From the NCBI GenBank assembly GCA_049975525.1, contig JBNGCW010000013.1:5004-69003 (forward strand): a DNA stretch of 64,000 nt, given 5' to 3'. A program made the translations under genes and the position numbers. Numbering within the stretch: the stretch's first letter is position 1; each line of letters opens with the position of its first letter. This document shows positions 5,906 through 43,354 of this stretch, one piece after another. Below the pieces are notes generated by a model that was given only the letters and a program-made list of their open reading frames with translations, did no database searches and was not told where the DNA came from. This DNA is from Anaerolineae bacterium. Its GTDB lineage: Bacteria > Chloroflexota > Anaerolineae > B4-G1 > SLSP01.

Positions 5906-8212
5906 ATGCAACCCTGGCACGACCCTGAATCCGTAAAGGTCCCCGACGCGCTGCGCGAGTACATCGGCGGACATCCTCTGGTGGCAGAGACGCTGGTCCG
6001 GCGGGGCATCACCACCGTCGAGGCAGCGCGGGCTTTCCTCGACCCCGACGCCTACGAGCCGACGCCGCCGGAGGCACTGCCCGATCTGACGCGGGCCGCC
6101 GAGCGCATTGAAGCGGCCATCCGCCGGGGGGAGCGCGTTCTGGTCTGGGGCGACTTCGACGTCGATGGGCAGACCTCGACATCGCTCCTGGTCGCCACGC
6201 TGCGCGACCTGGGCGCCGACGTCGCCTACCACATCCCCGTGCGGGCGACGGAGTCCCACGGCATCAAGGTGCCCTATCTGGCGACGGAGCTCGACGCGGG
6301 CATCGACGTGGTGCTCACCTGCGACACGGGCGTCGGCGAGCACGAGGCGGTGACCTACGCCAACGCCCACGGCGTCGACGTGGTCATCACCGACCACCAC
6401 GAGCTGCCGGAAGGCCCGCTGCCGGAGGCCGTCGCCGTTGTCAACCCACACCGCCTGCCCGACAACCATCCCCTGGCGACGCTGCCGGGCGTCGGCGTGG
6501 CCTACAAGCTGGCCGAGGCGCTCTACGCGCGCGCCGGCCGGCCCGAGGCCGTGGAGGCGTACCTGGACCTGGTGGCGCTGGGCATCGTGGCCGACGTCGC
6601 CACGCAGACGGGCGAGACGCGCTACTTGCTCCAGCGGGGCATGGAGGCACTGCGCCGCACGGAGCGCGTGGGCTTGCGGGCACTGATGCAGACGGCGCGC
6701 GTCAACCCGAGTGCGTTGAACACCGAAGATATCGGCTTCAGGCTTGGGCCGCGCCTCAACGCCCTGGGGCGGTTGGACGACGCCAACGTGATCGTGGAGT
6801 TCCTCACCACCGACGATCTGAGTCGGGCACGCATGATCGCGACGCAGCTGGAGCGGCTCAACGCGCAGCGCCAGCGTCTCTGTGACGCGGTGGAAGCGGG
6901 CGCCGAAGCGCAGCTGGCCCGCGATCCCGCGCTGTTGGAGCACGCCGCGCTGGTGCTGGCGAACCCCAACTGGCACCCGGGCGTCATCGGCATCGTCGCC
7001 AGCCGCCTTACGGAGCGCTACAACCGCCCCACCGTGCTCTTCCACGCGCCGGAGGCGGGCGTGGCGCGCGGCTCCGCGCGCTCCATCGCGGGCTGTCACA
7101 TCCGTGACGCCATCGCCACCCAGGCCGAGCTGCTGGAGGGCTTCGGCGGACACGCGGGCGCGGCGGGCCTGGCCCTGCCGACGGAGCGGATCGACGTCTT
7201 CCGCGTGGGCCTTTCACGGGCGGTACGGGCACAGATCGGGGAGCAGCCGCCGCGTCCCACGCTGCACATCGCAGGCTACGTGCCGCTGGCGGCGCTCTCG
7301 CCGGAGCTGGTGGACGATATCGAGCGCCTGGCACCCTTCGGCGAGGGCAACCCGCTGCCCGTGCTGGCGACGTCCGCTCTCACCGTCGCCCGCCACACGC
7401 AGATCGGACGCAAGCAGAACCACCTCAAAGTGTGGGTTCAGAACGCCAAAGGCGTGACGCAGGAGGTGCTCTGGTGGCGGGCCGCGCCGGAGGACCTGCC
7501 GGAGGGCCGCTTCGATCTGGCCTACACCGTGCGCACCAACACCTTCCACGGTGAGCGCCGCCTGCAGATCACCTGGCGGGACGCGCGCCCGGTGGTCCCC
7601 GAGATTGTCGCGCCGCCGCCCAGAAAGCCGAAAGTCATTGACTACCGCCGCGAGCCGCACCCCGAGACACTGCTGCAGCCGCTGCTGAACGCGCCGGATG
7701 TGGTGATCTGGGCCGAGGCCGGGCACCGCAAACTGGGCGTGACGCGCGAGGCGCTCTGTGCGGCCGATCACCTGGTCATCTGGACGACACCGCCCGGCCC
7801 CGAGGTGCTGGACACCGTGCGGGCGAAAGTGAATCCCCAGACGATCACCCTCTTCTGCGTCGATCCGGGGCTGGACGCGACCTCGGCCTTCGTGACCCGC
7901 TTCGTCGGCCTGATCAAATACGCGCTGCGGCACTATGACGGAGAGGTTGCAGTATCCAGGTTGACCGCGGCCATGGCCCATCGGGAGGCCACCGTGCGCA
8001 AAGCACTGGCCTGGCTCGTCGCGCGGGGCGACGTGGCGGTGGAGCGCCGAGACGCGGAAACGTGGACCCTGCGCCGCGCCGAGGGAGACGGCGATCTGGC
8101 CCGCGCGGCCAACCTCGCCGCCGAACTCACCGCCCTGCTGATGGAGACGGCGGCGTATCGCAAACACCTGCGCCGCGTGGACATGAAGGCGTTGTGGACG
8201 GCGGCGGATTGA
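5906..8212 (+). CDS. recJ: Single-stranded-DNA-specific exonuclease RecJ
   Basis: DHH-family motifs DFDVDGQTS, TCDTG, VITDHHE. DHHA1 GGHAGAAG. Start chosen at ATG 5906 (MQPWHDPE...), preceded by aaaggag. The ORF-track extension from 5603 overlaps the nuclease gene and is Arg/Ser/Pro-rich. Confidence 0.9.
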   Translation: MQPWHDPESVKVPDALREYIGGHPLVAETLVRRGITTVEAARAFLDPDAYEPTPPEALPDLTRAAERIEAAIRRGERVLVWGDFDVDGQTSTSLLVATLRDLGADVAYHIPVRATESHGIKVPYLATELDAGIDVVLTCDTGVGEHEAVTYANAHGVDVVITDHHELPEGPLPEAVAVVNPHRLPDNHPLATLPGVGVAYKLAEALYARAGRPEAVEAYLDLVALGIVADVATQTGETRYLLQRGMEALRRTERVGLRALMQTARVNPSALNTEDIGFRLGPRLNALGRLDDANVIVEFLTTDDLSRARMIATQLERLNAQRQRLCDAVEAGAEAQLARDPALLEHAALVLANPNWHPGVIGIVASRLTERYNRPTVLFHAPEAGVARGSARSIAGCHIRDAIATQAELLEGFGGHAGAAGLALPTERIDVFRVGLSRAVRAQIGEQPPRPTLHIAGYVPLAALSPELVDDIERLAPFGEGNPLPVLATSALTVARHTQIGRKQNHLKVWVQNAKGVTQEVLWWRAAPEDLPEGRFDLAYTVRTNTFHGERRLQITWRDARPVVPEIVAPPPRKPKVIDYRREPHPETLLQPLLNAPDVVIWAEAGHRKLGVTREALCAADHLVIWTTPPGPEVLDTVRAKVNPQTITLFCVDPGLDATSAFVTRFVGLIKYALRHYDGEVAVSRLTAAMAHREATVRKALAWLVARGDVAVERRDAETWTLRRAEGDGDLARAANLAAELTALLMETAAYRKHLRRVDMKALWTAAD

Positions 8213-8244
8213 ACGGAGGGAGCGATGGAGGGGGAAAACGGGGT

Positions 8245-10272
8245 ATGAAAGCACGGCAGCGCGCCCGGCGCTATAGTTTCTCTGTCCGACTGCAGTTCGG
8301 CTTTCTGGCCCTGGCTCTGTTGATCACGGTGGTCGCGGTGGTTTTCGTCCTGAGCCTGATCCGCAGGCAGTTAGACCGGCAAGCCTGGGCACAGTTGGAA
8401 CAGGGTGCGCTGGTGACGGAGGCGTTGTATGAGGCACAGCAACGCGCGTTAGCCAGATGGGCCCAGCTGCTTGCCGAGCGCCCTACCTTGCAGACATTGC
8501 TGGAGCAAGGCGACGGCCGAGCGCTTACGGACTACCTGATGACCTTTCGGGCAGATACACCGCTTGACTGCGTTCTCGTCTGCGACGACGCAGGGGGGGT
8601 CGTGGCCCGGGCGGGGGATGGGTGTCCGCGCTCGCCGACGAGCGCTTGTGTCCCCTCCTTCGATTCCAAGATGTTGTTTCAAAGCGCCCAGGTCGTCAAA
8701 AGACAGGAAGCCACGGTGGTGGTCGGCGTGACGCTGGACGAAGCCTTCGTCGAGACGTGGGCGGCGCAGACGGGGCTTGACCACACCCTTTTCCGGCAGA
8801 ATCGTCCCTTGGCGACGACGTTGTCTGTGGCTCAAGCGCCGGACGCCGCGCATTTTGACGTCGCCGATGTCCCTTATTACGCACGCACGCTCACGCTGGA
8901 CAGCGCTCTGGTAGATCAGATCGCTCTGCCCATCGACGATCTCCAGGCAACGTGGTGGCGGCTGGTCCGGGTGGTGATAGGCAGTGGGATGGGGCTCATC
9001 CTGGTCGGCGCACTCGTTGGCGTGATTTTCGCTCAACAGGCGGTGCGTCCTCTGGCAGCGTTGATGCGGGCGGCGGAGGCCCTCCCGGCGGAGCCCGATC
9101 AACCTGCTGACGCGGTGAAGGCTGTGGGCGAGCGCTGGCGCGTACAGGAGGTGATCCGGGTGGCGCTTGCATTGGAGGCGACTCGCAACGATCTGACGCG
9201 CACCTGGAAAGAGCTTCAACATGAGAAAGCATGGATCGAAAATCTGTTAGACGCTATTGTCGAGGGCATTGTCACGCTTGACGCGCACGGACGGATCACC
9301 TTTTTCAGCCGCGGGGCGGAAGCCATTACCGGTTGGCGGGCAGAAGAGGTGCGCAACCGTCTCTGCGATGAGGTTTTCACGCTGGTGGAAACGGATACGC
9401 CTTTCTCTGCTGCGCTACCTCAACCCGGTGGGCGGCGCAAGCTCACCGTGCGTTTAGGAGATCAGCAAGAAGCCGTGCTCGCCGTCACGCGGGCGGAACT
9501 GGCGCCACCGTCAGAAGAGGCGCACATGGCCCTGGTTTTCCGCGACGTCAGCGAAGAGGAAATCGTTCATCGGCTGCTGGGTTACTTTGTAGCCAACGTT
9601 GCACACGAGTTCCGCACGCCGCTTGCGGCTCTGGCTGCGTCCGTGGAGCTGTTGCTGGATCAAGCGCCCTATCTGAGTCCGGCGGAGATCCAAGAGCTGC
9701 TCAATGCTCTACATCTAAGTGTGCTTGACTTGCAAACTCTGATCAATAATCTATTGGAGAGTGCCAGCATCGAAACCGGACAATTTCACGTGCGCTGCCG
9801 TGACCTTGCCATCAGCGAGGTCATCGCCGAGGCTCTGCACACGATGCAGCCATTGTTGGAGAAACACGATCAGCAGTTGAACCTTCAGATCCCGGAATCG
9901 CTGCCCTCGGTGAAGATCGATCCACGCCGTACGCAGCAGGTACTCATTAATCTGTTGGACAACGCCAGCAAATACGGGCCAGATGGCGGCGAGATCTGTT
10001 TGCGCGTGCTCCACTCTGGCCCCTGGGTGCGGGTGGAGATCAGCGATCAAGGGCCCGGCGTCCCAGACGAGCAGCGCACCCTCCTGTTCCGGCATTTCAG
10101 CCGCACGCCGGCAGCCGCGCACGGTGAACATATCGGTATGGGCCTGGGCCTCTCGGTTGTGAAGGCCATCGTCGAGGCTCAGGGAGGAGAGGTGGGGGTT
10201 GACAGTCCCCCTGGCGGTGGGGCGCTCTTCTGGTTCACCATGCCTACTGCCGTCGATAAGGAGAGTGCTTGA
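8245..10272 (+). CDS. Sensor histidine kinase (two TM segments, periplasmic/extracytoplasmic domain, PAS, HisKA, HATPase)
   Basis: H-box VAHEFRTPLAAL, N-box LINLLDNASKYG, G-boxes DQGPGV and GMGLGLSV. PAS-like LDAIVEGIVTLDAHGRITFFSRGAE. Start at ATG 8245 (MKARQRAR...). Confidence 0.85.
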   Translation: MKARQRARRYSFSVRLQFGFLALALLITVVAVVFVLSLIRRQLDRQAWAQLEQGALVTEALYEAQQRALARWAQLLAERPTLQTLLEQGDGRALTDYLMTFRADTPLDCVLVCDDAGGVVARAGDGCPRSPTSACVPSFDSKMLFQSAQVVKRQEATVVVGVTLDEAFVETWAAQTGLDHTLFRQNRPLATTLSVAQAPDAAHFDVADVPYYARTLTLDSALVDQIALPIDDLQATWWRLVRVVIGSGMGLILVGALVGVIFAQQAVRPLAALMRAAEALPAEPDQPADAVKAVGERWRVQEVIRVALALEATRNDLTRTWKELQHEKAWIENLLDAIVEGIVTLDAHGRITFFSRGAEAITGWRAEEVRNRLCDEVFTLVETDTPFSAALPQPGGRRKLTVRLGDQQEAVLAVTRAELAPPSEEAHMALVFRDVSEEEIVHRLLGYFVANVAHEFRTPLAALAASVELLLDQAPYLSPAEIQELLNALHLSVLDLQTLINNLLESASIETGQFHVRCRDLAISEVIAEALHTMQPLLEKHDQQLNLQIPESLPSVKIDPRRTQQVLINLLDNASKYGPDGGEICLRVLHSGPWVRVEISDQGPGVPDEQRTLLFRHFSRTPAAAHGEHIGMGLGLSVVKAIVEAQGGEVGVDSPPGGGALFWFTMPTAVDKESA

Positions 10273-11993: not shown

Positions 11994-12063
11994 GTGTTGA
12001 TTTTAACTCGGCTATCGTGGTAAGGATGCATCACCCACCACACGCCCGAAGGAGGCATAGGTG

Positions 12064-13080
12064 ATGAGTATGAAAGATCGTGTTCTGGCAACCCTACATT
12101 TCGAAGAGGTACGCCCCTTGCCCTACACGCTGCCCATCGAGGAGGAGGTCGCCGCGCGGTTGGACGCGCACTACGGCGGCCCCGCGTGGCGCGAGCGGGT
12201 GCAGGATCACATCGCCTGGGTGGGAATTCCCGAGCTGGGTGTGCTGGAAGGGGCATCGACGTACTACACCGATCCCTTCGGTACCGTCTGGCGCTCGGAC
12301 CGGCGACCGCATCATCTGGAAAAGCCCGCGCTGGCCGAGCCCTCGCTCGACGGCTTCACCTGGCCCGCTGTCGACGAACTCTGGAACGAGGAGCTGGTGC
12401 TGGAGCAGATCGAGGTGGAGCAGGCGGCGGGCAAGTTCATCATCGCCTCGACGGGCTTCGGTATCTTCGAGCGCTCATGGACGCTGCGCGGCTTCGAGAA
12501 CGCCATGATGGATATGCTGCTCCACCCGGCGTTCTACGAGGCGCTGCTGGACGGCATCTTGAACGTCCATCTGCAGCTGGTGGAGCGACTGGGCGCGCTG
12601 CCGGTGGACGGTATCCTACTCTCCGACGACTGGGGCGACCAGCGCGGCGTGATCATGGGGCCGAAGATCTGGCGGAAGTTCATCAAGCCTCGGGCGCGGC
12701 AGTTCTTCGCGGCGGTGCACGCGCACGGTAAGTGGACCTTCCAACACTGCTGCGGCAGCATCTTCGAGATCATCCCCGAGGTCATCGAGATCGGGCTGGA
12801 CGTGTTGGAGTCGCTGCAGCCGGAGGCCATGGACGTCTACGAGATCAAGCGGCGCTACGGGCGCGACCTGCGGCTCTGGGGCGGACTGGGGACGCAGCAG
12901 TTGCTGCCCTTCGGCACGCCGGCGGAGATCCGCGCCGAGGTGATGCGCCTGCGGAAAGAATTGGGCGCGGGCGGCGGCTACATCCTGGCGCCTGCCAAAC
13001 CGCTGATGCCGGAGGTGCCCACGGAGAACGCCGTCGCGGCGGTGGAGGCCTTCACCGCTGCCGGTGATGACGAACCGTAA
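12064..13080 (+). CDS. Uroporphyrinogen-decarboxylase (UroD/MtaA/CmuA) family protein, probable corrinoid-dependent methyltransferase
   Basis: UroD-fold-like length and pattern (DDWGDQRG, FQHCCGS, LESLQPEAMD, GGYILAPA). AAGGAGG lies 7 nt before the ATG at 12064. Confidence 0.75.
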   Translation: MSMKDRVLATLHFEEVRPLPYTLPIEEEVAARLDAHYGGPAWRERVQDHIAWVGIPELGVLEGASTYYTDPFGTVWRSDRRPHHLEKPALAEPSLDGFTWPAVDELWNEELVLEQIEVEQAAGKFIIASTGFGIFERSWTLRGFENAMMDMLLHPAFYEALLDGILNVHLQLVERLGALPVDGILLSDDWGDQRGVIMGPKIWRKFIKPRARQFFAAVHAHGKWTFQHCCGSIFEIIPEVIEIGLDVLESLQPEAMDVYEIKRRYGRDLRLWGGLGTQQLLPFGTPAEIRAEVMRLRKELGAGGGYILAPAKPLMPEVPTENAVAAVEAFTAAGDDEP

Positions 13081-13136
13081 AATCGGATTTCTCTAAAACT
13101 CACCCTACACGTGGGAAAATTTGCGGTCAAAACCAC
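13079..13136. repeat. 58-nt intergenic repeat element, copy A1 (starts with palindrome AAATCGGATTT)
   Basis: Its reverse complement matches 27408-27465 at 51 of 58 positions by hand alignment. Confidence 0.85.
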
Positions 13137-13237
13137 TAGTGCCTTGTCAAGTCTTAACTGATGGATGAAAGTGGCTACCGGTACACCCATCTGTCCATCA
13201 GATCACGCCTGACGAAACACCAGCGCCTCTCACGTTA

Positions 13238-13297
13238 GAAATCGGATTTTTAGGTGACTATACTCTACATCTAGTGATTTTGGTCATGAGAAACCCA
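13238..13297. repeat. Degenerate copy (A2) of the same element
   Basis: Starts with GAAATCGGATTT and is followed by a weakly similar body (..ACTCTACATCTAGTGATTTTGGTCA..AAACCC). Confidence 0.5.
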
Positions 13298-13337
13298 CAT
13301 ATAGTATCAAGTCGTAGAAAAATCCGATTTCTGCTGG

Positions 13338-13384
13338 TTATTTCAGTGGTGTCAATGTTGACACTACTGAAAAAAAGGGTCAGC
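13338..13384. repeat. 47-nt repeat element type 2, copy 1 (preceded at 13319-13331 by a third AAATCCGATTT palindrome)
   Basis: TTATTTCAGTGGTGTCAATGTTGACACTACTGAAAAAAAGGGTCAGC aligns with 43495-43541 at roughly 80% identity with two 1-nt indels (hand alignment). Confidence 0.75.
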
Positions 13385-13403
13385 TTTTCAGGTGAGTCAG
13401 CAA

Positions 13404-13431
13404 TTGCTTCCCCGCCGGAATCTCGTATAAT
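13404..13431 (+). promoter_or_regulatory. Putative sigma70-type promoter TTGCTT-N16-TATAAT for the MtaA-like gene
   Basis: Hexamers at 13404-13409 and 13426-13431, 34 nt upstream of the ATG at 13465. Confidence 0.4.
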
Positions 13432-13464
13432 GTCTGACATCATATACTCGTAACAGGAGGCACC

Positions 13465-14442
13465 ATGCAGACCCTACGTGACATTGTGGATCAATCCCCA
13501 CATCGCCTGGTCGTCCCGTTGATGGGCTTCCCCGGCACGCAGCTGACCCACTCGACGATCTGGCAGAATGAGTTCAACGCGGAGTTGCAGTACCGCACCA
13601 TCGCGGCGCTGGTGGAGCGCTTCGAGCCCGACGCCGCCTTCTTCTTCATGGACCTGGCGGTGGAAGCAGGCGCCATCGGGTTGCCCGTGCTCTTCCCGGC
13701 CAGCGGCTCACCGTCGGTGAAGCAGCATCCCGTCAAGCGGATCGAGGATCTGGCCCAGTTCGAGGTCGTGGACGTGCGCTATGACGCGCGCGTGCGCACC
13801 TACGTCGATGTGATGCAACGCATGAAAGCGGGGCTCGAGGTACTGGCGGGCGCCTACGTCATCGGCCCTTTCACCCTGGCCGGGTTGATGATGGGCGCCA
13901 CGCAGATTGCCCTGGCGACGATCCAGGATCCCGATCTGGTACACGCGGCGGCCCGGTTCGCCACCGACGTGATCATCCGCTACGGCGAGCAGCTGGCGGA
14001 GGCCGGGGCCGACATGCTCTGCGTGCTGGAACCGACGGCGACCTTTATCTCCCCCAAAGCGTTCCGGGCGTTCTCCGGGCGCTACGTCAAGGAGATTGTG
14101 GAGGCGCTGGACATCCGGACGATCTTACACATTTGCGGCGACACCAAGCACCTGGTCGAAGCCATGTGTGAGACCGGCGTCCAGGGGTTGAGCCTGGACG
14201 CGCCCCTGGACTTCCCGGCGACCATCGAGCGCATGCCGGAGAACGTGGTCTTGATCGGCAACGTCGATCCCGTGCGCGTCATGGTCAACGAGACGCCGGA
14301 CAACGTGCGAGAAGCGGTTCGGGCGCTGGTGGAGAACATGGCACCGTATCCGAACTTTATCCTCAGCACCGGCTGTGATCTGCCGCCGGAGACGCCGCTG
14401 GCAAACATCCAGGCGTTCATGGAGGCCGGGAGAGCCCCATAG
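13465..14442 (+). CDS. MtaA/CmuA-type (UroD family) methylcobamide methyltransferase-like protein
   Basis: N-terminal PLMGFPG, FMDLAVEAGAIG, CVLEPTA, HICGDT and STGCDLPPETP are characteristic of the MtaA/MtbA family. RBS aggagg before the ATG. Confidence 0.8.
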   Translation: MQTLRDIVDQSPHRLVVPLMGFPGTQLTHSTIWQNEFNAELQYRTIAALVERFEPDAAFFFMDLAVEAGAIGLPVLFPASGSPSVKQHPVKRIEDLAQFEVVDVRYDARVRTYVDVMQRMKAGLEVLAGAYVIGPFTLAGLMMGATQIALATIQDPDLVHAAARFATDVIIRYGEQLAEAGADMLCVLEPTATFISPKAFRAFSGRYVKEIVEALDIRTILHICGDTKHLVEAMCETGVQGLSLDAPLDFPATIERMPENVVLIGNVDPVRVMVNETPDNVREAVRALVENMAPYPNFILSTGCDLPPETPLANIQAFMEAGRAP

Positions 14443-14814
14443 AGACCACCGTCGGCCCGACCGGAAGGGGATCGGGAAACATCCCAGGCGTCGGGTCGGG
14501 CACAAAGGCGAGGGATTGCTCTTCGGTCAGGATCCCGTATAATACATGCGTGGCCATCCAAACAACCATCCGTCCAAATGGCATAAGGTACAACGCATCT
14601 GCAATAGCCCGATCATGTTGACTAAGCATCCATGGCTGCATGCACGAAATGGACATGTTCAAAATCTGGGGCCGAGGTCCTCACCGTGCCCCCTACGTTC
14701 AAACATTCGAAGGTGCATTAAACCCTAATATCGTCATCCGAGAGATTTTCACAGATTATAATGACAATGAACCAAAAACAAGCCATTTAACAACAACCGA
14801 CTCAGGAGGCCAAT

Positions 14815-15450
14815 GTGGAAACAGTTTTAGCAGAGATCCGTGAAGGTGTGATGAAGGGCGACCTGTCCCAGGTCGAAGCCAAGGTGACTCAGGCGCTGGA
14901 GGCAGGTGTGGAGCCCGAGGAAATCCTGAAGCAGGGCATGATCGAAGCCATGGCCAAAGTCGGCCAGCTCTTCGAAGACGGAGAGTACTTTGTGCCGGAG
15001 ATGCTCATCGCGGCGCGGGCCATGAAGGGCGGGCTGACGATCCTGAAGCCGCACCTGGTGGACACCGACGTGCAACCGGCGGGCAAAGTGATCGCCGGCA
15101 CCGTCAAAGGCGATCTGCACGACATCGGTAAGAACCTGGTCTGCATGATGCTGGAAGGCGCCGGCTTCGAGATTCAGGATCTGGGCACCGACGTGGCACC
15201 GGAAGCGTTCGTCAGCGCCGTGCAGGAGGGTGATGCAGACATCGTCGCCATGTCGGCGCTGCTGACGACCACCATGCCCAACATGGAGGCGACCATCAAA
15301 GCGCTGGAAGAGGCCGGCGTCCGCGAGCAGGTCAAGGTCATCATCGGCGGCGCGCCGGTGACCGCAGCCTACGCCCAGAAGATCACCGCCGACGGTTACG
15401 CACCCGACGCCAGCCGCGCGGTTAAACTGGCGCAAAGTCTGGTCGGCTGA
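14815..15450 (+). CDS. Corrinoid (B12-binding) protein of methyltransferase systems
   Basis: N-terminal helical cap domain plus a Rossmann B12 domain with the DxHxxG motif (GDLHDIGKNLV), SALLTTT and GGAP. GTG start 5 nt after AGGAGG. Confidence 0.9.
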   Translation: METVLAEIREGVMKGDLSQVEAKVTQALEAGVEPEEILKQGMIEAMAKVGQLFEDGEYFVPEMLIAARAMKGGLTILKPHLVDTDVQPAGKVIAGTVKGDLHDIGKNLVCMMLEGAGFEIQDLGTDVAPEAFVSAVQEGDADIVAMSALLTTTMPNMEATIKALEEAGVREQVKVIIGGAPVTAAYAQKITADGYAPDASRAVKLAQSLVG

Positions 15451-15519: not shown

Positions 15520-17952
15520 ATGAAATCCAAACTGCGTCTGGCGCCTGAGAAGCTATATCGGCCTACAGATCCCGAGCGCTTCGAGTTTCAGACCACTGAG
15601 GAGTTGGAGCCGCTCTCCGACGCCGTGGGACAACCGCGTGCCGTGACGGCGATACGCTTCGGCATGGACATTCAGAGCGATGGCTACAACATCTTCGCGC
15701 TGGGGCCACCCGGCACCGGCAAGCGAGACGTCATCCAGCGCCTTGTCGAACGGCGCGCTGCCTCCATGCCCGTCCCCGACGACTGGTGTTACGTCAACAA
15801 CTTCGAGGACCCCCACAAGCCGAAAGCGATTCGCCTGCCGGCCGGGGTAGGCGTAGACTTCCGCACTGACATGGAGGAGTTAATCGAGGACTTACAGACG
15901 GCGCTCTCCTCCGCCTTTGAAAGCGAGGAGTATCAAACCCGTCGGCAGACACTGATGGAGGAGTTCAAAGAAAAACAGTCGCAGGCCTTCGAAGAGCTCC
16001 AATCCCGCGCCCAGGATCAAGGTGTAGCCCTGATCCGCACGCCGGCGGGATTGGCCGTAGCGCCCATCCGGGAAGGTGAAGTGCTCTCCCCGGAGGAGAT
16101 TCAGGAGCTGCCCAAAGAGGAACGCGCCCGACTCCAGGAAAATATCGCAGAAATTCAGGACGATCTACAGAAGATCCTGCAGCGCATTCCACGCTGGCAG
16201 CGTGAGATGCGCAAACGTCTCGACAAGTTAAACCACGAGATGGCCAATCTGGCCGTAGGCGGTCTGATCGACGAGCTGCGTGAGAAATACAGCGCTTTCC
16301 CCGAGGTCATCGAGCATCTGGACACCGTCCAGGAGGATGTGGTGGAGCACGCCAACGAATTCCTGCCCTCGCAGGAAGGCGAGGGGGCATCGGCCATGAA
16401 AATACTACAACGGCATGCCGGCCAGACGCCCGGTGGAGAGGCTTCCTCGTTGTACCGCTACGAGGTCAACGTGATCGTCGATCATAGTGGCTCTGAGGGA
16501 GCCCCGGTGATTTACGAGGGCAATCCCACTTACCAGAACCTCATCGGGCGGGTGGAACATCAAGCCCGCATGGGCGCCCTGTACACCGACTTTCGCCTGA
16601 TCAAACCCGGCGCCCTCCACCGTGCCAACGGCGGCTATCTCATCCTGGATGCGCGGAAGGTGCTGAACCAGCCCTACGCCTGGGAGGGACTCAAACGCGC
16701 GCTGCAGTCCGGTGAGATGCGCATCGAATCGCTGGGACAAATGCTCAGCCTGATCAGCACCATCTCCCTGGAACCGGAGCCCATTCCTCTGAAGGCGAAA
16801 ATCGTCCTCTTCGGAGACCCTCTGCTCTACTATCTGCTCTGGGAACTGGACCCCGAGTTCGCCCAGCTCTTCAAAGTCCAGGCGGATTTCGAGGATCAGA
16901 TGGAACGCACCTCCGATCAGCTCCAGCTCTACGCCCGGCTGATCGCCACCCTCGCCAAACGGAAGGATCTGCGCCCGCTGGATCGTTCGGCAGTGGCCCG
17001 CGTCGTGGAGCACAGCGCCCGTCTGGTGGAAGACGCAGAGAAGCTCTCCACACGCACGCGGGATATCAGTGACTTGCTCTGCGAAGCCGATTACTGGGCA
17101 GACCAGAACGGCCACGAGGTCATCACGAGGGCGGACGTGCAACAGGCCATCGATGCGCAAATCTACCGTGGCGACCGCCTGCGGGAACGCATACAAGAGG
17201 CCATCTTGCGCGATACGCTGCTGATCGACACCGAGGGAGAGAAGGTCGCGCAGGTCAACGGGCTCTCGGTCATCCAGCTGGGCAACTTCGCCTTCGGGCG
17301 ACCGACACGCATCACAGCCCGTACCCGGCTGGGGAAGGGCGAGGTCCTCGACATCGAGCGGGAGGTCGAACTGGGCGGCCCCATCCACTCCAAAGGGGTG
17401 CTCATCCTCTCCGGCTTCCTTGGCGCGCGCTATGCCGAAAATACACCGCTCTCCCTTTCGGCCAGCCTGGTCTTCGAGCAGTCCTACAGCGACGTGGAGG
17501 GGGACAGCGCCTCGACAGCCGAACTCTACGCCCTGCTCTCCTCCATCGCCAACGTGCCCTTGAAGCAATCACTGGCCGTCACCGGTTCCGTCAACCAGCA
17601 CGGGCAGGTTCAAGCCATCGGCGGCGTCAACGAAAAGATCGAAGGCTTCTTCGATATCTGCAAAGCCCGAGGGCTGACCGGCGACCAGGGCGTTTTGATC
17701 CCCGCCGCCAACGTCAAGCATCTGATGCTGCGCCAGGACGTGGTGGAGGCCGTCCGCAACGGTGATTTCCACGTTTACGCCATCTCCACCGTCGACGAGG
17801 GGCTGGAGCTGCTGAGCGGCCTGCCGGCCGGCGAACGTGACGCGGAGGGCAACTACCCCGAAGGCACCTTCAACTATCGCGTCCAACGCCGTGTGCAGGA
17901 GCTGGCGGAACGGCGCGAAATCTCTGGCGAAGACGAAGGAGAGGAGGCATAA
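15520..17952 (+). CDS. Lon-related ATP-dependent protease (COG1067/LonB-YcbZ-like, long form with helical insertion)
   Basis: Walker A GPPGTGKR. A coiled-coil-like insertion lies between Walker A and GGYLILDA. C-terminal Lon protease domain with catalytic Ser in GDSASTAEL and Lys in GGVNEKIEGFF. Confidence 0.85.
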   Translation: MKSKLRLAPEKLYRPTDPERFEFQTTEELEPLSDAVGQPRAVTAIRFGMDIQSDGYNIFALGPPGTGKRDVIQRLVERRAASMPVPDDWCYVNNFEDPHKPKAIRLPAGVGVDFRTDMEELIEDLQTALSSAFESEEYQTRRQTLMEEFKEKQSQAFEELQSRAQDQGVALIRTPAGLAVAPIREGEVLSPEEIQELPKEERARLQENIAEIQDDLQKILQRIPRWQREMRKRLDKLNHEMANLAVGGLIDELREKYSAFPEVIEHLDTVQEDVVEHANEFLPSQEGEGASAMKILQRHAGQTPGGEASSLYRYEVNVIVDHSGSEGAPVIYEGNPTYQNLIGRVEHQARMGALYTDFRLIKPGALHRANGGYLILDARKVLNQPYAWEGLKRALQSGEMRIESLGQMLSLISTISLEPEPIPLKAKIVLFGDPLLYYLLWELDPEFAQLFKVQADFEDQMERTSDQLQLYARLIATLAKRKDLRPLDRSAVARVVEHSARLVEDAEKLSTRTRDISDLLCEADYWADQNGHEVITRADVQQAIDAQIYRGDRLRERIQEAILRDTLLIDTEGEKVAQVNGLSVIQLGNFAFGRPTRITARTRLGKGEVLDIEREVELGGPIHSKGVLILSGFLGARYAENTPLSLSASLVFEQSYSDVEGDSASTAELYALLSSIANVPLKQSLAVTGSVNQHGQVQAIGGVNEKIEGFFDICKARGLTGDQGVLIPAANVKHLMLRQDVVEAVRNGDFHVYAISTVDEGLELLSGLPAGERDAEGNYPEGTFNYRVQRRVQELAERREISGEDEGEEA

Positions 17953-17953
17953 G

Positions 17954-18796
17954 ATGAAAGCGCCCAAAATCCGACGCATTCTGGTGGCGGTCGATGCTTC
18001 ACCTCACAGCCAGGCAGCCCTGGAAGCGGCGGGAGAATTGGCGGCGCGCTTTAACGCAGAACTGTTGGGGCTGTTTGTCGAAGACCTGAACTTGTTGCGC
18101 CTGGCAAGCTTGCCCTTCGGCAAGGAGGTGGGCCTCTTTTCCGCCCTGCCTCGCCAGCTGCGTCCCCCGGACGTGAAACGTCAGCTGCGCATTCAGGCCC
18201 GCCGGGCTCAGGAGACCTTTTCCGTCGTCGTCGAACGTCGGGAGATCTCCGGCACCTTCCACGTCGTACGCGGTTCCGTCTCCCAGAAAATTTTGGAGGC
18301 CTCGGCCGAGGTGGACATTGTCCTGTTGGGAAAGTCCGGGCTCTCCCAACTGCGGAAGGAGCGCCTGGGTTCCACCGCTCAGACGCTGTTGGCCGAAGCG
18401 CCGGGCATGATGATGATCTTGCAAAACGGAGCTCGCCTCGGATCGCCGGTGGTGTTGGTCTACGACGGATCGTTGATGGCGAAGAAAGCGCTGCACGCGG
18501 CCTTGACTTTGTTGGAGCAGGAGGACCAGCCGCGCAAGCTCACGGTCCTGACGGTGGGCGATGGACCAGAGGCATGTCGCCGCCTGCAGGCCGAGATCGA
18601 GGCGACGCTGTCCACGAAAAACGTGAGGGTGCAGTACCGCACCCTCTGCAGCTCAAGCGCCGAGAAGGTCACCTATCGCATCAAGTTAGAGGAACGCGGC
18701 ACCCTGGTGCTGCCGGCCAAACAGGAGCTGGTGGAAAACGAGGTGCTCCACGAACTTCTCGCCAAAATCGACGTGCCGGTGCTGCTCGTGCGCTAA
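17954..18796 (+). CDS. Tandem universal stress protein (two UspA domains)
   Basis: RILVAVDASPHSQAALEAA and GKSGLSQLRKERLGST (ATP-binding-type motif) in domain 1. A second, more degenerate USP domain follows. The ATG lies 1 nt after the Lon stop. Confidence 0.8.
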   Translation: MKAPKIRRILVAVDASPHSQAALEAAGELAARFNAELLGLFVEDLNLLRLASLPFGKEVGLFSALPRQLRPPDVKRQLRIQARRAQETFSVVVERREISGTFHVVRGSVSQKILEASAEVDIVLLGKSGLSQLRKERLGSTAQTLLAEAPGMMMILQNGARLGSPVVLVYDGSLMAKKALHAALTLLEQEDQPRKLTVLTVGDGPEACRRLQAEIEATLSTKNVRVQYRTLCSSSAEKVTYRIKLEERGTLVLPAKQELVENEVLHELLAKIDVPVLLVR

Positions 18797-18808: not shown

Positions 18809-21800
18809 ATGACTCATCCAACCACCGATCTACTCATCCACCTGCGCCCCCAGACGCCCGAAGGCAGCTATCCCGTCGAGGCCCGGCTGGAAGACGGCAG
18901 CCGTTTCAGCGGCGGTCGCTTCCAACCCGACATGGAGACGCTACGACGCGCGGCCCTTGACCCCCAAACCTACGGCCTCTCCCTCTTCTACGCCCTCTTC
19001 AACGGCCCCATCCGGCGCGCCTACGACCGCGCCTGGGGACGCGCCGGCGAAGGCGGGCTGCGGATCCGCCTCTGGATCGACCGCGAGGCCGCCGCGCTCC
19101 ACGCCCTGAAATGGGAGCAACTGCACTACGTAGATCAAGGCATAACCGCGCCGCTGAGCGCCTCCGCCCGTACGCCCTTCGCCCGCTACCTGGACCTGGA
19201 AAAGGGCCATCCCCCCCCCCTCGACGAACGCCCCCTGCGCCTGGTGGCAGCCCTCGCCAATCCCACCGACCTGCAGGCGTACGGCCTGGCTCCCATCGAC
19301 GTCTTCCGCGAAGTGGAGGTGCTGATCAAGGCCCTGCGCGGGCTGACCCGCACCGGACAGCTCGACGTGACGCTGCTGACCGGGCGCACGGCGCTGCCCG
19401 ACAGCCTCCACGCTCACCTGAGCGACCTGGGCTGGCAGGTGCTCGACGTTCCCACTACCCTGGACAACGTGTTGCGGGCTCTGGAGGCTAACGGAGGCGC
19501 CCACGCCCTGCACCTGGTCGCCCACGGCGCGCTCCGCACCAGAGACGGCGTCGCCGTGCTCTTTCTGGAAGACGCAGAGGGCGCGGCCCAGATCACGCCC
19601 GACCGGGAGATAGCAAAACAACTGCACGAGCTGGCGTCCCGACCGCGTCTGGTCTTCCTGGCGCCTTGTGAGAGCGCCGCCCGCGATCCTGACAACGCCA
19701 ATCCCTTCGTGGGCCTGGCACCCAAACTGGTGCGGGCAGGTGTGCCCGCCGTCGTCGCCATGCAAGATAGCGTGCCCATACGCGTCGTCCACGAGCTGAC
19801 GCAGGATTTCTACCGTCATCTGCTGGATCACGGCCAAGTGGATCGAGCGCTCAACCAGGCGCGGTTGCTGCTCTATGAAGAAACCTCACCAGCGTGGGCC
19901 ATCCCCGTGCTCTTCACCCATCTTCCCGACGGCCAGCTCCTGGTGGAAGACCCGGTACGGACGGCGCTGAGCGCCATGGTGGAAGCCCCCCAGTTCAATC
20001 CGCTGGCGAAAGATGAGGACTACATCCCCCTCAACGCGCTCTACCTCACCGGAGAGCCCAAAAACCTCAACCTGGAGCAACTGCGCCGCGAGCGCACCTC
20101 CGCCCAGGAGATCAACACGGCCTTCCAACATATCTTCTCCAGGAAGACACCGTGCTGCGTGGCCCTGATCGGCGACGCCGGCATGGGCAAGTCGCTCCAG
20201 ATGAAACGTCTGGGCCGCCTCACGGCGGAAGCCTCCCTGGCACCGAACGCCGCGCGCGTCGTGATCCCCGTCTACATCGACCTGCAAGCGCTGCGCGCAG
20301 CGCCGCTCGTGGGGCCGGCCGACGTCGAGGCGTTGATCCTCAAAGCACTGACCCCCTTCTGGCCGACGGAGGGCAAGCCTCAACCCGCCGATCTGGTGAC
20401 CGCCCGGGAGGGTCCCATCCTGCGCATACTCATCGACGGCAGTGACTCTCTCCCCGACCACGTGCGGCGGCGTCTCTGGGCAGCGGTGGATCGCTTTGCC
20501 CGCCGCCGCTCCCGGCATCAATACGTCGTAGCACACAAATCCACCCACTTTGCGCCGCAGCTCCTGCCTCTGACCGACGTCCTGGTTCTACAACCCCTCT
20601 CTCCCGGCGCGCTGACCCACTACCTCACCCAGAGGCTCGGCACACCCGTCGCCCTGCGGCTCTACGGCGCCATCGAGCGCCACCGTCTCCACGACCTGGC
20701 GGCCCTCCCCTGGCTGCTGGTGCAGATGCTGCGCCAGACCCAACGCGGCACGCTTCCCACGTCGCGGGCGGAGGTGCTGGAACACTATGTGACGGACATC
20801 GTCGCCGATCTCGCCCGCAATCCGGGCATGCGCGCGCTGATCAACCAGACGCTGGACGCCCTGGCCTGGCGCATGCAATCCACCTTCCGCAGCCGCCTGC
20901 CCCTCGACGAAGCCTTTGAGATTATGGCGCAGGTGCGGGGACACCGCGACTACGACCTGGAAGCTTTCTTCAGCGCTCTGGTGACCCACGATCTGTTGAC
21001 CCCCGTGGGCACGGAAGCCCTGACCTTCGCCCGCGACGAGGTCCGAGCCTATGTCTGCGCACGCGCCCTGACACGGCAAAAGCAGACGACGCTGGACGAG
21101 GTGTTGGCTACATTGGGACGTCGCAGCCGCTATCGCTGGTGGCAGAAACCGCTCACGCTGTTGGCGGGGTTACCCCAGGCCCCATCCTCGCTGATGTACC
21201 GCCTGCTTCACGACGCCGCCCTTGACGAAGAGGTCACCCTCGACGAAGGCGAACTGGTCTTCTTGGCCGCGCACATGCTCCGAGAGGGCAGACGCGAGGG
21301 AGAGGAACGGCTGCGAGCCTACGTCGTGGGCGCCCTGCTCCTCCGCCTGGACAGCCGTCGTGAACCGCAGGTGGAACTGCGCGCGTGGGCAGCTGAGGCG
21401 TTGGGCGACCTGGAGGCCCGTGCCGCTGTCCCGCGTCTCATCTCCGTCGCGCTCGAAAAGGTACGCGGCTCTCCGGCAAGCCCCAAGTACGAATACAGCA
21501 CCGTGCGCCTCGCGGCCCTGCGGGCGCTCCGGCGGATCCTCCCTCGGCCCTACACGGACGTGGCGACATACGATGAGCGCCTGGCCCAAATGATGACCCA
21601 CTGGACGGAGCATGACGTGAAGGCCCTGGCGCATGACTTGCATCACACGCCCACCCGAGAGGGAGCCAACATCCAGGGTCTGACAGCCCTCACCCTGGGC
21701 GAGCTGGGCACCCAGGCAGCTGTGGACGTCTTGATCGAGGCTTTCCTGGCCCCTGATCAGGACGCCGCGCTGTACCGCAGCGTCTCCACAGCACTGACCT

Positions 21801-22276
21801 TGATCGATCCGGCCCAGGTCACCCGGCGCGTCGTGCTCCCCCTGCTGGAGGAGGCCGAAGAGGAACCTCGACGCCTGGGGCCCCGCCTGGCAAACTTGAT
21901 CTACCTCATCGGGCGGGTGCGCGTCCCGGCGCAAAAGGCCCGGGATTTCCTGCGGCGGTGTCTGGAAACGTGCGCGCCGATCCACCTGAAAGGCCTGACC
22001 ATCCAATCGCTGGGTTGGTTACACGCCGTCGAGTACAAAGAGACCTTTGAAGCCGTGGCTTTGGGTGCTTTTGAAGCGCTGCAACTGGTCGGCCCCCTCT
22101 CCGACGCCACCCAACGTTATCTGCAACGCAAGGCTCTGGAGGCACTGGCGTACCTCGGAGACATGGAGACGTTGAAACGTCTGAAACAAGAGGCCTTTAC
22201 CTGGGATCCCGAGTTGGAGATGGCCTTTTACCGCACCCACGAGGAGATTTTGGTACACAGAAAGCAAACGACCTAG
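18809..22276 (+). CDS. CHAT (caspase-like protease) - NACHT/STAND P-loop NTPase - HEAT/PBS-lyase repeat protein
   Basis: CHAT dyad His239 (LHLVAHG) and Cys287 (FLAPCESA). Walker A GDAGMGKS (Lys461). Walker B-like ILIDGSDS. C-terminal repeats AAEALGDLEARAAVPRLI, LTLGELGTQAAVDVLIEAF, ALEALAYLGDMETLKRL. Confidence 0.85.
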   Translation: MTHPTTDLLIHLRPQTPEGSYPVEARLEDGSRFSGGRFQPDMETLRRAALDPQTYGLSLFYALFNGPIRRAYDRAWGRAGEGGLRIRLWIDREAAALHALKWEQLHYVDQGITAPLSASARTPFARYLDLEKGHPPPLDERPLRLVAALANPTDLQAYGLAPIDVFREVEVLIKALRGLTRTGQLDVTLLTGRTALPDSLHAHLSDLGWQVLDVPTTLDNVLRALEANGGAHALHLVAHGALRTRDGVAVLFLEDAEGAAQITPDREIAKQLHELASRPRLVFLAPCESAARDPDNANPFVGLAPKLVRAGVPAVVAMQDSVPIRVVHELTQDFYRHLLDHGQVDRALNQARLLLYEETSPAWAIPVLFTHLPDGQLLVEDPVRTALSAMVEAPQFNPLAKDEDYIPLNALYLTGEPKNLNLEQLRRERTSAQEINTAFQHIFSRKTPCCVALIGDAGMGKSLQMKRLGRLTAEASLAPNAARVVIPVYIDLQALRAAPLVGPADVEALILKALTPFWPTEGKPQPADLVTAREGPILRILIDGSDSLPDHVRRRLWAAVDRFARRRSRHQYVVAHKSTHFAPQLLPLTDVLVLQPLSPGALTHYLTQRLGTPVALRLYGAIERHRLHDLAALPWLLVQMLRQTQRGTLPTSRAEVLEHYVTDIVADLARNPGMRALINQTLDALAWRMQSTFRSRLPLDEAFEIMAQVRGHRDYDLEAFFSALVTHDLLTPVGTEALTFARDEVRAYVCARALTRQKQTTLDEVLATLGRRSRYRWWQKPLTLLAGLPQAPSSLMYRLLHDAALDEEVTLDEGELVFLAAHMLREGRREGEERLRAYVVGALLLRLDSRREPQVELRAWAAEALGDLEARAAVPRLISVALEKVRGSPASPKYEYSTVRLAALRALRRILPRPYTDVATYDERLAQMMTHWTEHDVKALAHDLHHTPTREGANIQGLTALTLGELGTQAAVDVLIEAFLAPDQDAALYRSVSTALTLIDPAQVTRRVVLPLLEEAEEEPRRLGPRLANLIYLIGRVRVPAQKARDFLRRCLETCAPIHLKGLTIQSLGWLHAVEYKETFEAVALGAFEALQLVGPLSDATQRYLQRKALEALAYLGDMETLKRLKQEAFTWDPELEMAFYRTHEEILVHRKQTT

Positions 22277-22295: not shown

Positions 22296-22796
22296 ATGAC
22301 CACCATGGACGATCTGAAAGCCGCTTTTGCGGGTGAATCACAAGCCAATCGGCGTTATCTGGCCTTCGCCGAAAAGGCCGAGGAGGAAGGGCTCCCCAAT
22401 ATCGCCCGTCTTTTCCGCGCCGTCGCAGCGGCCGAGACGGTGCACGCACACAGTCACTTTCGCACGATGGGCGGGGTCAAGAGTACCGCCGAGAATCTCA
22501 AGACTGCCATCGCCGGGGAGAACTACGAAGTCAAGACCATGTACCCCGAATTCATGGAAAACGCCAAAGAAGCCGGTGAGCGCCGCGCCGAGATCACCTT
22601 CAAGCACGCCTGGGAGGTGGAAAAGATCCACGAACAGCTCTACCGCGCAGCCCTGGAGCAGGTCGAGAGAGGGGATATCGAAGCCGCTGAGTACTACGTC
22701 TGCTCCGTCTGCGGACACACGCACGTCGGCGCCGAGCCCCCGGAACGCTGTCCCATCTGCGGCGCCAAACGCGAACGCTACATGAAGATCGAATAA
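22296..22796 (+). CDS. rbr: Rubrerythrin
   Basis: Ferritin-like di-iron ExxH motifs (AETVHAH, EVEKIHEQ). C-terminal rubredoxin-type CSVCGH...CPICG. Confidence 0.9.
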   Translation: MTTMDDLKAAFAGESQANRRYLAFAEKAEEEGLPNIARLFRAVAAAETVHAHSHFRTMGGVKSTAENLKTAIAGENYEVKTMYPEFMENAKEAGERRAEITFKHAWEVEKIHEQLYRAALEQVERGDIEAAEYYVCSVCGHTHVGAEPPERCPICGAKRERYMKIE

Positions 22797-40718: not shown

Positions 40719-40739
40719 TTTAGCCTCCCTAAGACAAAC

Positions 40740-41273
40740 TTATGGGATATTCCTTACCATTACAATCAATAAACTCACGACGTCGAGGAGCAAAAAGAAC
40801 GCCGCGAGGACGGTAAGGCGCTCCAGGAACTCCCACCATACCTCTCGCACTCGCCGGTACTTGATGGCGAAATACGTCAACCCCAACATCGCCACCAGCC
40901 CCAACAGCCAAAGGTTCAACATCATCCCCGAAATTGTCAACCCCATACTACCGTAAATCAAAAGAAAAACGATTAAAGTTGCCATGGTGACAAAATCCAG
41001 AGAAAAAAGATCTCTCGGCAACAGATAGGTCAATGCCCACACAAGCATGAAGAGTCCCAGGCTTTCTATCAAAGCAAACGTCAGCGCGTAGGAGGCGACG
41101 CCGACGATATCCCACACATACATTCGCATTCTTAAGGAAGGCAGCTCCCACAACACGCTGTAAATGGCCACCGTGTTAACGATTGACAGCACTATCACAA
41201 ACACAGAGATCGTCTCCTGGCGCTCAGGCAGACGTCGTCTAAAGATATCCAAGGCTTTCCAACCTCCGTTCAA
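40740..41273 (-). CDS. Hypothetical membrane protein (5-6 TM)
   Basis: Hydrophobic throughout, co-directional, 35-nt overlap with the upstream gene. No motif recognised. Confidence 0.5.
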   Translation of the reverse strand: MNGGWKALDIFRRRLPERQETISVFVIVLSIVNTVAIYSVLWELPSLRMRMYVWDIVGVASYALTFALIESLGLFMLVWALTYLLPRDLFSLDFVTMATLIVFLLIYGSMGLTISGMMLNLWLLGLVAMLGLTYFAIKYRRVREVWWEFLERLTVLAAFFLLLDVVSLLIVMVRNIP

Positions 41274-43074: not shown

Positions 43075-43088
43075 CGTGTACCCCCGAA

Positions 43089-43262
43089 TTACAGCTCATC
43101 CACAGATTTACCACCGAATTTCTCCCGCAGAAAACGCCTGAACCTGGCCCACACTGCCCGAATCTGACGGGCAAAGAGCAACACCAGGCCGGAAAGCAGC
43201 GCGAATGCCGCGGCCAGAATCTGGAACAACATTCCCCCTGTATTCGGATCAATATATGCCAT
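43089..43262 (-). CDS. Small single-pass membrane protein (57 aa, MAYIDPNTGGMLFQ...)
   Basis: ATG 43262 lies 7 nt after GAAGGAG. One hydrophobic helix followed by a basic tail. Ends 15 nt before the downstream AP-family gene. Confidence 0.5.
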   Translation of the reverse strand: MAYIDPNTGGMLFQILAAAFALLSGLVLLFARQIRAVWARFRRFLREKFGGKSVDEL

Positions 43263-43324
43263 TATGTTTTCTCCTTCATACAATTTCTGCAGATAAAGAC
43301 TGTAAAATTCTTAAAATACCAAAA

Positions 43325-43348
43325 CAAGTCTTGACACCACTGAAAAAG
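43325..43348. repeat. Partial copy of repeat element type 2 (CAAGTCTTGACACCACTGAAAAAG)
   Basis: Matches the core of 43510-43535 and 13352-13377. Confidence 0.6.
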
Positions 43349-43354
43349 ATTATG

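Follow-up and report, generated by a model that had tools for sequence, protein, structure and literature searches.

The 64,000-nt stretch of DNA analysed here (the window; contig JBNGCW010000013.1 of an Anaerolineae bacterium) carries on its forward strand a gene predicted to encode three modules on one chain: a CHAT protease, a NACHT-type NTPase and an array of HEAT repeats. A preliminary description of the window had suggested that this protein is a defence or cell-death switch resembling the NLR proteins. The open reading frame (ORF) at 18809..22276 (+) runs for 1155 codons from ATG to stop without interruption, and the antisense ORFs overlapping it are shadow frames, as is usual in DNA of 66% G+C. 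Two other sequencing runs contain the same protein, identical in sequence and flanked by the same genes. The gene and the parts assigned to its product are as follows, in window positions, with the basis of each assignment.

18809..22276 (+), CHAT-NACHT-HEAT gene, 1155 amino acids (aa); AGGA 8 nt upstream of the ATG
18809..18982 (+), N-terminal three-strand beta subdomain, residues 1-58; strands 5-12, 21-27 and 32-38 in the AlphaFold2 (AF2) model
18983..19948 (+), CHAT (clan CD, caspase-like) protease domain, residues 59-380; Pfam CHAT E=3.4e-24
19523-19525 (+), codon of the predicted catalytic His239; motif LHLVAHG, residues 234-240
19667-19669 (+), codon of the predicted catalytic Cys287; motif FLAPCESA, residues 283-290
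19949..20128 (+), protease-NTPase linker, residues 381-440; the least conserved segment of the protein
20129..20608 (+), P-loop nucleotide-binding domain of STAND/NACHT type, residues 441-600; Walker motifs and fold
20189-20191 (+), codon of Lys461; Walker A motif GDAGMGKS, residues 455-462
20435-20437 (+), codon of Asp543; Walker B motif ILIDGSDS, residues 540-547
20609..21217 (+), helical domain 1, winged-helix domain and helical domain 2 of the NOD module, residues 601-803; AF2 secondary structure and full-length NLR alignments
21245..22273 (+), C-terminal PBS-lyase-type HEAT array of about 10 helix pairs, residues ~813-1155; HEAT_PBS and alphaRep matches

The two ends of the protein were identified by profile searches. 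Pfam CHAT (PF12770) matched residues 59-361 with 86.2 bits (cut-off 24), in agreement with the CHAT domain with an intact His/Cys dyad that had been proposed, and in the PADLOC and PDB sequence comparisons, too, the N-terminal domain matched CHAT best. HEAT_PBS scored 23.6 bits against a cut-off of 20.9, with the best repeat at 857-880, and the family profile matched the PBS-HEAT consensus alphaRep proteins of the PDB at E=1.7e-19. All motifs quoted in the preliminary description were found at their residues, including the HEAT-like strings at 861-878, 961-979 and 1109-1125. As far as profile scores can establish it, the protease and the repeats are identified from sequence alone and the class of the NTPase is not. 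For the latter, Pfam AAA_16 gave a sub-threshold 18.4 bits at residues 434-571 (cut-off 32.6), and the NOD region compared with the PDB by sequence gave only non-significant matches to NLRP5 and ABC proteins. Of 34 relatives, 20 had NACHT as their best NTPase family (best E=1.6e-10); AAA_16 and nSTAND_NTPase5 came next.

Because sequence search gave no significant placement of the NTPase, a fold search was needed. An AF2 model built on 49 relatives (pLDDT, the per-residue confidence, 87.9; pTM, the predicted template modelling score, 0.83) was compared with the PDB by Foldseek. The top 18 matches were NOD2, NLRC4, NLRP3, NLRP7 and NLRP14, with E-values of 3e-8 to 1e-7 for NOD2, NLRC4, NLRP3 and NLRP7 and up to 1e-6 for the NLR set including NAIP5, which stood at rank 24 among further NLRs. 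From rank 19 on, SAVED-CHAT (8tl0, E=9e-7) was interleaved; Cdc6/ORC, alphaRep HEAT proteins and separase (5fc2) came after these. The SAVED-CHAT and separase matches agree with a caspase-like fold of the CHAT domain. In the model, the arrangement of nucleotide-binding domain, helical domain 1, winged helix and helical domain 2 is closest to that of solved NACHT proteins. The proposed NACHT-type NTPase is thereby upheld by the fold and by the relatives, but not by the Pfam NACHT score of the protein itself. The model contains about 20 helices at residues 816-1154, preceded by a linker of low confidence at 804-812. The HEAT array is accordingly about 340 aa long, and not more than 400 as had been described, residues 601-803 being the helical and winged-helix parts of the NOD module. 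The array is presumed to be the sensor. A flexible loop of low pLDDT (289-291) follows Cys287.

Conservation was counted in an alignment of 49 relatives. His239, Gly240 and Cys287 are invariant (49/49), Lys461 is kept in 47 and Asp543 in 45 of the sequences; judged from these residues, the protease and NTPase activities are evidently both under selection. The NOD module holds a conserved motif, F740-x-[R/Y]742 ... Y748-C-C-A751. In NLRs the winged-helix motif is FxHxxxQE[FY], with the His contacting the nucleotide. Here F740 is invariant, position 742 is Arg (26), Tyr (20) or His (3), and Q/R746 and Y748 are conserved. The Walker B segment reads D543-G544-S545-D546-S547, with Gly at position 544 in 36 of 49 and otherwise Asn, Ser or Asp. 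The NACHT signature D[GAS]hDE has a small residue after the Mg-binding Asp and then two acidic residues (10.1101/2022.07.19.500537); the window protein has the small residue (Gly544), one acidic residue (Asp or Glu) is present in 47 of 49 relatives, and the second is absent.

The family is small. A word-indexed search returned 452 relatives, more than 100 of them full length (1150-1300 aa, 33-64% identical) and named at the source, where a name is given, 'CHAT domain-containing protein' or 'HEAT repeat protein' of Anaerolineae, Thermoflexia or Chloroflexota metagenome-assembled genomes (MAGs). An exhaustive HMMER search of 1.84 billion cluster representatives with the NACHT-HEAT part alone gave 293 proteins at E<=1e-3, that is, a family of about 300 when counted in clusters at 50% identity. 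In nearly all 293 matches the NACHT-HEAT module lies at ~400-1150 of proteins of ~1150-1300 aa, and is therefore almost always joined to CHAT. When 185,579 species were scanned, each by a single genome, 142 relatives came up, a lower bound since the scan used one conserved peptide pattern. Full-length members occur in Anaerolineae, where the majority is found, in other Chloroflexota, in Acidobacteriota (Blastocatellia, Bryobacterales, Vicinamibacterales), in Variovorax brevis and in a gammaproteobacterial MAG, so that the distribution is sporadic and crosses phyla. The gammaproteobacterial gene (L064:56-3605) consists of two overlapping ORFs, one for residues 3-492 and the other for 506-1147, owing to a frameshift or an assembly error. 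Several loci recorded as 'uncultured Heliomicrobium sp.' or 'Heliobacteriaceae' MAGs (L035, L039, L042, L045, L048, L073, L088) cluster tightly, genes and flanks alike, with Blastocatellia/Acidobacteriota loci, and these record names may be taxonomic mislabels. In the literature, of which not all journals were covered, no description of the CHAT-NACHT-HEAT family was found, in keeping with the earlier suggestion that the combination is uncharacterised.

The CHAT module is shared with other proteins. Residues 1-380 are 40-50% identical to the CHAT part of other Anaerolineae proteins, and the beta subdomain travels with it, since CHAT-only paralogues also match residues 1-380. The other C-terminal fusions of the same module are nSTAND1-WD40, TPR, a P-loop with Ig-like (ASH/DUF1573) repeats, HEAT and SIR2. 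Loci with such CHAT-fusion paralogues are L054, L057, L062, L070, L077 and L090, and several MAGs hold at least three CHAT paralogues, for example isolate R24_97 (L051, L069, L084, L085). A modular pattern of this kind, one effector with many sensors and a shared downstream cassette, has been described for conflict systems of multicellular bacteria (PMC7159879, PMC8195603).

In the window, the LonC, Usp and rubrerythrin genes listed below form a tight same-strand array with the gene, and the genes in the first line lie upstream of this array.

12061-15450 (+), two genes of the URO-D family and then one for a B12-binding corrinoid protein; arranged like a corrinoid-dependent methyltransferase system
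15520-17952 (+), LonC-like protease gene, 2 nt before the next; AAA_32, LonB lid, LonC helical and Lon_C domains
17954..18796 (+), universal stress protein (Usp) gene, ending 13 nt upstream of the CHAT-NACHT-HEAT gene
22296..22796 (+), rubrerythrin gene, separated from the CHAT-NACHT-HEAT gene by 20 nt; strong AGGAGG site

Beyond rubrerythrin, genes for an FAD oxidoreductase and a cyclopropane-fatty-acid (CFA) synthase lie on the opposite strand. A promoter and terminator scan gave zero promoter-like sites, and terminator-like sites at chance level. The sole weak PADLOC matches among the neighbours were BrxL on the Lon domain of LonC (E=1.5e-4) and PDC-M43B on the gene at 8062-10269 (+); the latter, a 736-aa ORF, matches this candidate-defence model with its C-terminal 140 residues (E=5e-6). 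The association of LonC with the CHAT-NACHT-HEAT gene is not conserved in relatives. Further along the window, a low-GC block at 40000-52600 (-), with 45-53% GC against ~62% elsewhere, was considered as a defence island and rejected, as it encodes glycan biosynthesis instead: phosphodiesterase-like proteins, PMT_2-type and family-2 glycosyltransferases, asparagine synthase, a DegT aminotransferase and NAD-epimerase/dehydratase. The block may represent a surface-polysaccharide island gained by horizontal transfer.

Synteny allowed the rate of evolution of the gene to be compared with that of its surroundings. At L011, the closest genome locus, the rubrerythrin, oxidoreductase and synthase genes are again found downstream, and the upstream genes are not shared; here the CHAT-NACHT-HEAT gene is 61% identical and the flanking genes are 81-86% identical. 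Other close relatives (63-64% identical) have entirely different neighbours, and a large sub-clade keeps NTP_transferase and UDPGP genes downstream. In more distant pairs of this syntenic sub-clade the gene shows 39-51% identity as against 72-86% for the flanking genes. The CHAT-NACHT-HEAT gene diverges two to three times faster than its syntenic neighbours.

Potential partner genes were sought by calling ORFs in all fetched loci, 52 of them full length and non-identical, and clustering them by BLASTP. One cluster, c22, is a gingipain-like Peptidase_C25 (31-37 bits, cut-off 23), which occurs in 27 of the 52 loci, within two genes of the family gene in 25, and always on the same strand. Its His272, Gly273 and Cys332 are invariant in 36 of 36 sequences, and its predicted fold best matches gingipains R and K. 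A second cluster, c238, is present in 17 loci (Acidobacteriota, Variovorax), nearly always directly downstream of the family gene, and appears to be an alpha/beta-hydrolase, with a GHSFG motif and weak Abhydrolase matches. A third cluster, c365, was dismissed as a spurious Arg-rich antisense ORF. The neighbour-joining tree of the family (no bootstrap, midpoint root) has three groups, which differ in these partners.

Acidobacteriota and others: C25, family gene, hydrolase in this order, or family gene followed at a distance by C25
Chloroflexi A: family gene followed by C25, together with the proteins c60 (~260 aa) and c59 (~110 aa)
Chloroflexi B (the window and its clade, about 20 loci in all): no C25 and no hydrolase within 10 kb

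By parsimony, the C25 linkage would be ancestral and lost in the clade of the window.

The C25 peptidase of the Chloroflexi forms a cassette (C25 peptidase of ~640-690 aa plus the ~260-aa and ~110-aa proteins), found at the following positions.

L023:5416-8589
L010:13546-16718
L091:7001-10101
L093:7001-10248

With at least 6982 matches, the best of them 60-85% identical, the C25-like family greatly exceeds the CHAT-NACHT-HEAT family in size, and it is highly conserved. On three unrelated contigs a C25-like gene follows a [CHAT-SIR2_2][nSTAND1-WD40] pair and precedes the same ~260-aa and ~110-aa genes, and in L010 the CHAT-NACHT-HEAT gene sits between such a pair and the C25 cassette. The two small cassette proteins have no Pfam match, and no description of the cassette was found in the same coverage of the literature. 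The ~110-aa protein (c59; L023:8254-8589) is homologous to the C-terminal ~115 aa of a long C25-like peptidase (L023:5416-7392; also L010, L004, L025, L054, L084), in which the c59-like domain is tethered by a linker that is disordered in the model (residues 498-547). It may be an adaptor or regulatory domain. A kinship of this domain with the N-terminal beta subdomain (1-62) of the CHAT-NACHT-HEAT protein was tried and rejected (hhalign probability 0.1%).

In Acidobacteriota-type MAGs the C25-like peptidase, the CHAT-NACHT-HEAT protein and the GHSFG hydrolase-like protein are encoded in a tight operon (L034:8439-15024), and about 15 loci are of this kind (L035, L038-L044, L046, L048, L071, L073-L075, L088). 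This operon resembles the published modules of a caspase with a hydrolase zymogen, plus one extra peptidase. In two Chloroflexi loci a subtilisin-like S8 gene follows the C25-like gene (L036:15619-16737 and L037:15615-16736; DTG, GHGT and GTSQATP recognised by eye), which brings the number of different proteases per cluster to three.

A sensor-activated protease, as proposed in the preliminary description, is the natural reading of a CHAT-NACHT-HEAT architecture with conserved catalytic residues. In the form that we favour, at somewhat better than an even chance, the protein would be a ligand-activated, ATP-dependent, oligomerising single-chain NLR-like protease that drives death, arrest or dormancy in a conflict setting. 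At rest it would be an autoinhibited ADP-bound monomer. A protein or other macromolecular ligand would dock on the C-terminal HEAT array and free the NACHT-type module for nucleotide exchange and oligomerisation; the oligomer would gather the N-terminal CHAT domains and so turn on the His239/Cys287 protease, which would cut one or more cellular targets and bring about growth arrest or cell death. The likely setting would be the response of a filamentous Anaerolineae bacterium to phage or another invader. Ligand binding by HEAT, ATP-driven oligomerisation, activation by proximity and the lethal outcome are inferred from analogues, namely animal NLRs, Avs/bNACHT proteins, SAVED-CHAT, the caspase/hydrolase-zymogen modules and fungal NLR-like proteases. 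In related clades the substrate is likely to be the adjacent C25 peptidase and/or alpha/beta-hydrolase. The clade of the window has no adjacent partner; its target may therefore be a C25 cassette or another target encoded elsewhere, or ordinary cellular proteins cleaved directly.

The role in conflict is the point on which the evidence divides. It is narrowly favoured, in our judgement, by the fast evolution of the gene, its patchy spread across phyla, the shuffling of CHAT among many alternative sensors and the conflict-type C25/hydrolase partners of distant relatives. A considerable set of observations weighs on the other side. The Pfam NACHT profile (PF05729) stays below its gathering score of 26.7 bits, with 21.2 bits for the whole protein (451-554) and 23.3 for the central region, and the winged helix has Arg or Tyr where the NLR motif has its nucleotide-contacting His. 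Divergence is even across all domains, the HEAT array being no more variable than the rest of the protein. PADLOC found no defence gene near the gene among its neighbours in the window; applied to the protein and to the partner genes it gave no system-level match, and no model fitted beyond CHAT, the Avs2 match being weak and local (E=0.0095, 11.7 bits, 80 residues at 654-731). A tblastn search of the whole 64-kb window with all partner clusters, including the 17 c238 sequences, found nothing, and the C25 and hydrolase partners are missing within 10 kb throughout the clade. No tRNA genes, Rfam families or meaningful flanking repeats were found around the gene. In the literature covered, no phage-protection or other experiment on any family member was found. 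Finally, in the window's clade the gene stands in conserved synteny with housekeeping and stress genes, which is unusual for defence genes, and with no defence gene near; this is one part of what the preliminary description had named as speaking against its proposal. Some relatives adjoin CHAT-SIR2/nSTAND1-WD40 genes. On the whole the proposal is partly supported, the defence role being its putative part. A mobile-element origin was rejected separately: besides the absence of tRNA genes, Rfam families and repeats just noted, no full-length relatives were found on plasmids, phages or IMG/VR viral contigs, and the G+C content at third codon positions (GC3) of the gene resembles that of its neighbours.

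The same observations could be explained by a physiological, non-immune switch, in which an endogenous signal (oxidative or nutrient stress, damage, or a developmental cue) triggers regulated proteolysis, programmed death or filament fragmentation in a multicellular Anaerolineae bacterium. The tight same-strand array with stress-related neighbours (LonC, 2 nt, Usp, 13 nt, gene, 20 nt, rubrerythrin) would fit such a switch, as would the synteny with rubrerythrin, FAD-oxidoreductase and CFA-synthase kept in L011 and that with NTP_transferase and UDPGP kept in the large sub-clade. A sensor array conserved about as well as the catalytic domains fits a constant ligand, and the lack of defence genes nearby and of a PADLOC match also speaks for a physiological role. 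There is also a cyanobacterial CHAT protease, HetF, with a developmental or cell-division role according to its NCBIfam name. However, the protein is not an equivalog of HetF (NF045509, 33.7 bits against a cut-off of 1200); membership of both HetF and CpcE was rejected, as the curated cut-offs were failed. The rate of evolution of the gene is two to three times that of its syntenic neighbours, its distribution across phyla is sporadic, its upstream neighbours are not conserved even at 60-64% identity, and the outgroup relatives lie in protease/hydrolase cassettes beside CHAT-SIR2/nSTAND1-WD40 genes typical of conflict systems. We consider a physiological switch a possibility to be kept in mind, at a probability well short of even. 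If it were correct, the protein would be a rare bacterial NLR-type protein with a non-immune role.

Two further explanations concern the output of the protein. The clade of the window could have lost an adjacent C25/hydrolase effector, leaving an orphaned sensor with reduced or no output and under weak selection. An adjacent C25 gene is indeed present among the outgroups and the sister Chloroflexi group and in none of the ~20 loci of the window's clade, and evolution faster than that of the neighbours could mean relaxed constraint. Against this, intact ORFs of 1150-1220 aa are kept across lineages of the clade that share only 39-51% identity, the conserved His, Cys and P-loop would be unexpected in a functionless gene, and at least one MAG, R24_97, has a C25 locus (L084) in addition to a solo gene (L051), so that the effector may act in trans, bearing in mind that MAG binning can err. 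The STAND-HEAT part could, alternatively, be an assembly platform in a non-proteolytic scaffold or regulator, with CHAT only binding partners. In certain ternary conflict systems many caspase domains are reported to be catalytically inactive (Kaur et al. 2020, PMC7159879), and HEAT arrays are common as scaffolds; but none of the 49 aligned relatives departs from the His-Gly and Cys of the dyad, and no DNA-binding or other output domain was found by Pfam or in the AF2 model. Because the ORFs are intact and the catalytic residues invariant across deep divergence, both explanations are unlikely: an orphaned sensor is improbable, and a scaffold very improbable indeed.

Returning to the conflict-related protease, we also considered an extension of it, which at present is rather doubtful. 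Filamentous Chloroflexi could possess a network in which many sensors with the same initiator CHAT feed one shared C25 executioner cassette, the unlinked sensor of the window's clade acting in trans. Such sensors may include CHAT-NACHT-HEAT, CHAT-nSTAND1-WD40, CHAT-SIR2 with nSTAND1-WD40, and CHAT-TPR. If this were true, it would be a bacterial counterpart, convergent and similar to a caspase cascade, of the many NLRs that converge on one executioner caspase. The gingipain-like cassette shared among related loci is the more interesting lead. For the protein itself, an NLR-like chain that carries its own caspase-family protease would represent the simplest logic of an apoptosome or inflammasome. 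A small, well-defined family, a confident model and clean catalytic and P-loop mutants make it a tractable case for asking how NACHT oligomerisation switches on CHAT, what the HEAT ligand is, and whether gingipain-like executioners are fed by bacterial initiator proteases. Wastewater sludge, sediments and mats hold abundant Anaerolineae, whose phage-defence biology is, to our knowledge, almost unexplored.

Among known systems, the bNACHT proteins are similar in having a central NACHT-type STAND module, an N-terminal enzymatic effector and a C-terminal repeat sensor. Peptidases are among their listed effectors and HEAT among their listed sensors, and they are enriched in multicellular bacteria (Kibby et al., 10.1101/2022.07.19.500537). 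The protein differs from them in its sub-threshold NACHT score, its DGSDS segment without the second acidic residue and the lack of a PADLOC model matching its NTPase part. Moreover, sensors diversify rapidly in some bNACHT clades, whereas the HEAT array here is not hypervariable. Avs proteins (PMC13581612; PADLOC Avs models) likewise carry an effector at the N-terminus, a STAND NTPase and a helical-repeat sensor at the C-terminus of one chain, and protease effectors occur among them; a conserved sensor would fit the recognition of a conserved phage protein. In contrast to Avs, however, the NTPase fold of the window protein is closest to the NACHT NLRs.

On the side of the protease, the nearest parallel is the SAVED-CHAT/PCaspase pair of type III-B CRISPR/CBASS, in which filament formation switches on CHAT, and CHAT in turn activates another caspase-like protease, PCaspase (10.1101/2023.06.23.546230; PDB 8tl0). 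Sensor-driven oligomerisation of CHAT is what we propose here, and relatives pair with a second clan-CD peptidase in the manner of an initiator with its executioner. The sensor of the window protein, though, is NACHT plus HEAT and not the cyclic-oligonucleotide-binding SAVED, the PADLOC SAVED_CHAT match being confined to the CHAT part (profile positions 102-263). The second peptidase of the relatives is C25/gingipain-like and not C14, and the window gene has neither an adjacent second peptidase nor a CRISPR or CBASS context. In the protease-hydrolase modules (PMC12642450; PMC7159879), which also carry fused STAND or repeat sensors, a caspase-like protease cleaves an adjacent alpha/beta-hydrolase zymogen and causes death, as shown experimentally (PMC12642450). 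The Acidobacteriota and Variovorax relatives have a hydrolase-like gene directly downstream, c238 being likened to the LcHydrolase module by its arrangement, while the window and its clade have no hydrolase.

The protein also resembles the fungal HET-Q2-like proteases, in which CHAT or S8 domains on an NLR architecture cleave gasdermin (PMC8851545): protease, NOD and repeats are on one chain with no CARD-type adaptor. It differs in kingdom and in having HEAT instead of TPR, ANK or WD40 repeats, and no gasdermin-like gene was seen beside any family member examined. With the AP-ATPase STAND switches that control caspases it shares a caspase-family protease under STAND control, the bacterial versions having the protease fused in place of CARD, but its NTPase resembles the NACHT NLRs and its sensor is HEAT and not a beta-propeller. 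Fusions of a caspase-family protease with a STAND NTPase and repeats are an old observation in multicellular bacteria and in fungi (PMC7159879, PMC8195603, PMC13581612, PMC8851545). Since the curated NACHT score failed and no Avs or bNACHT model matched, the protein is placed outside the named defence families, as a divergent NACHT-like family within this already known kind.

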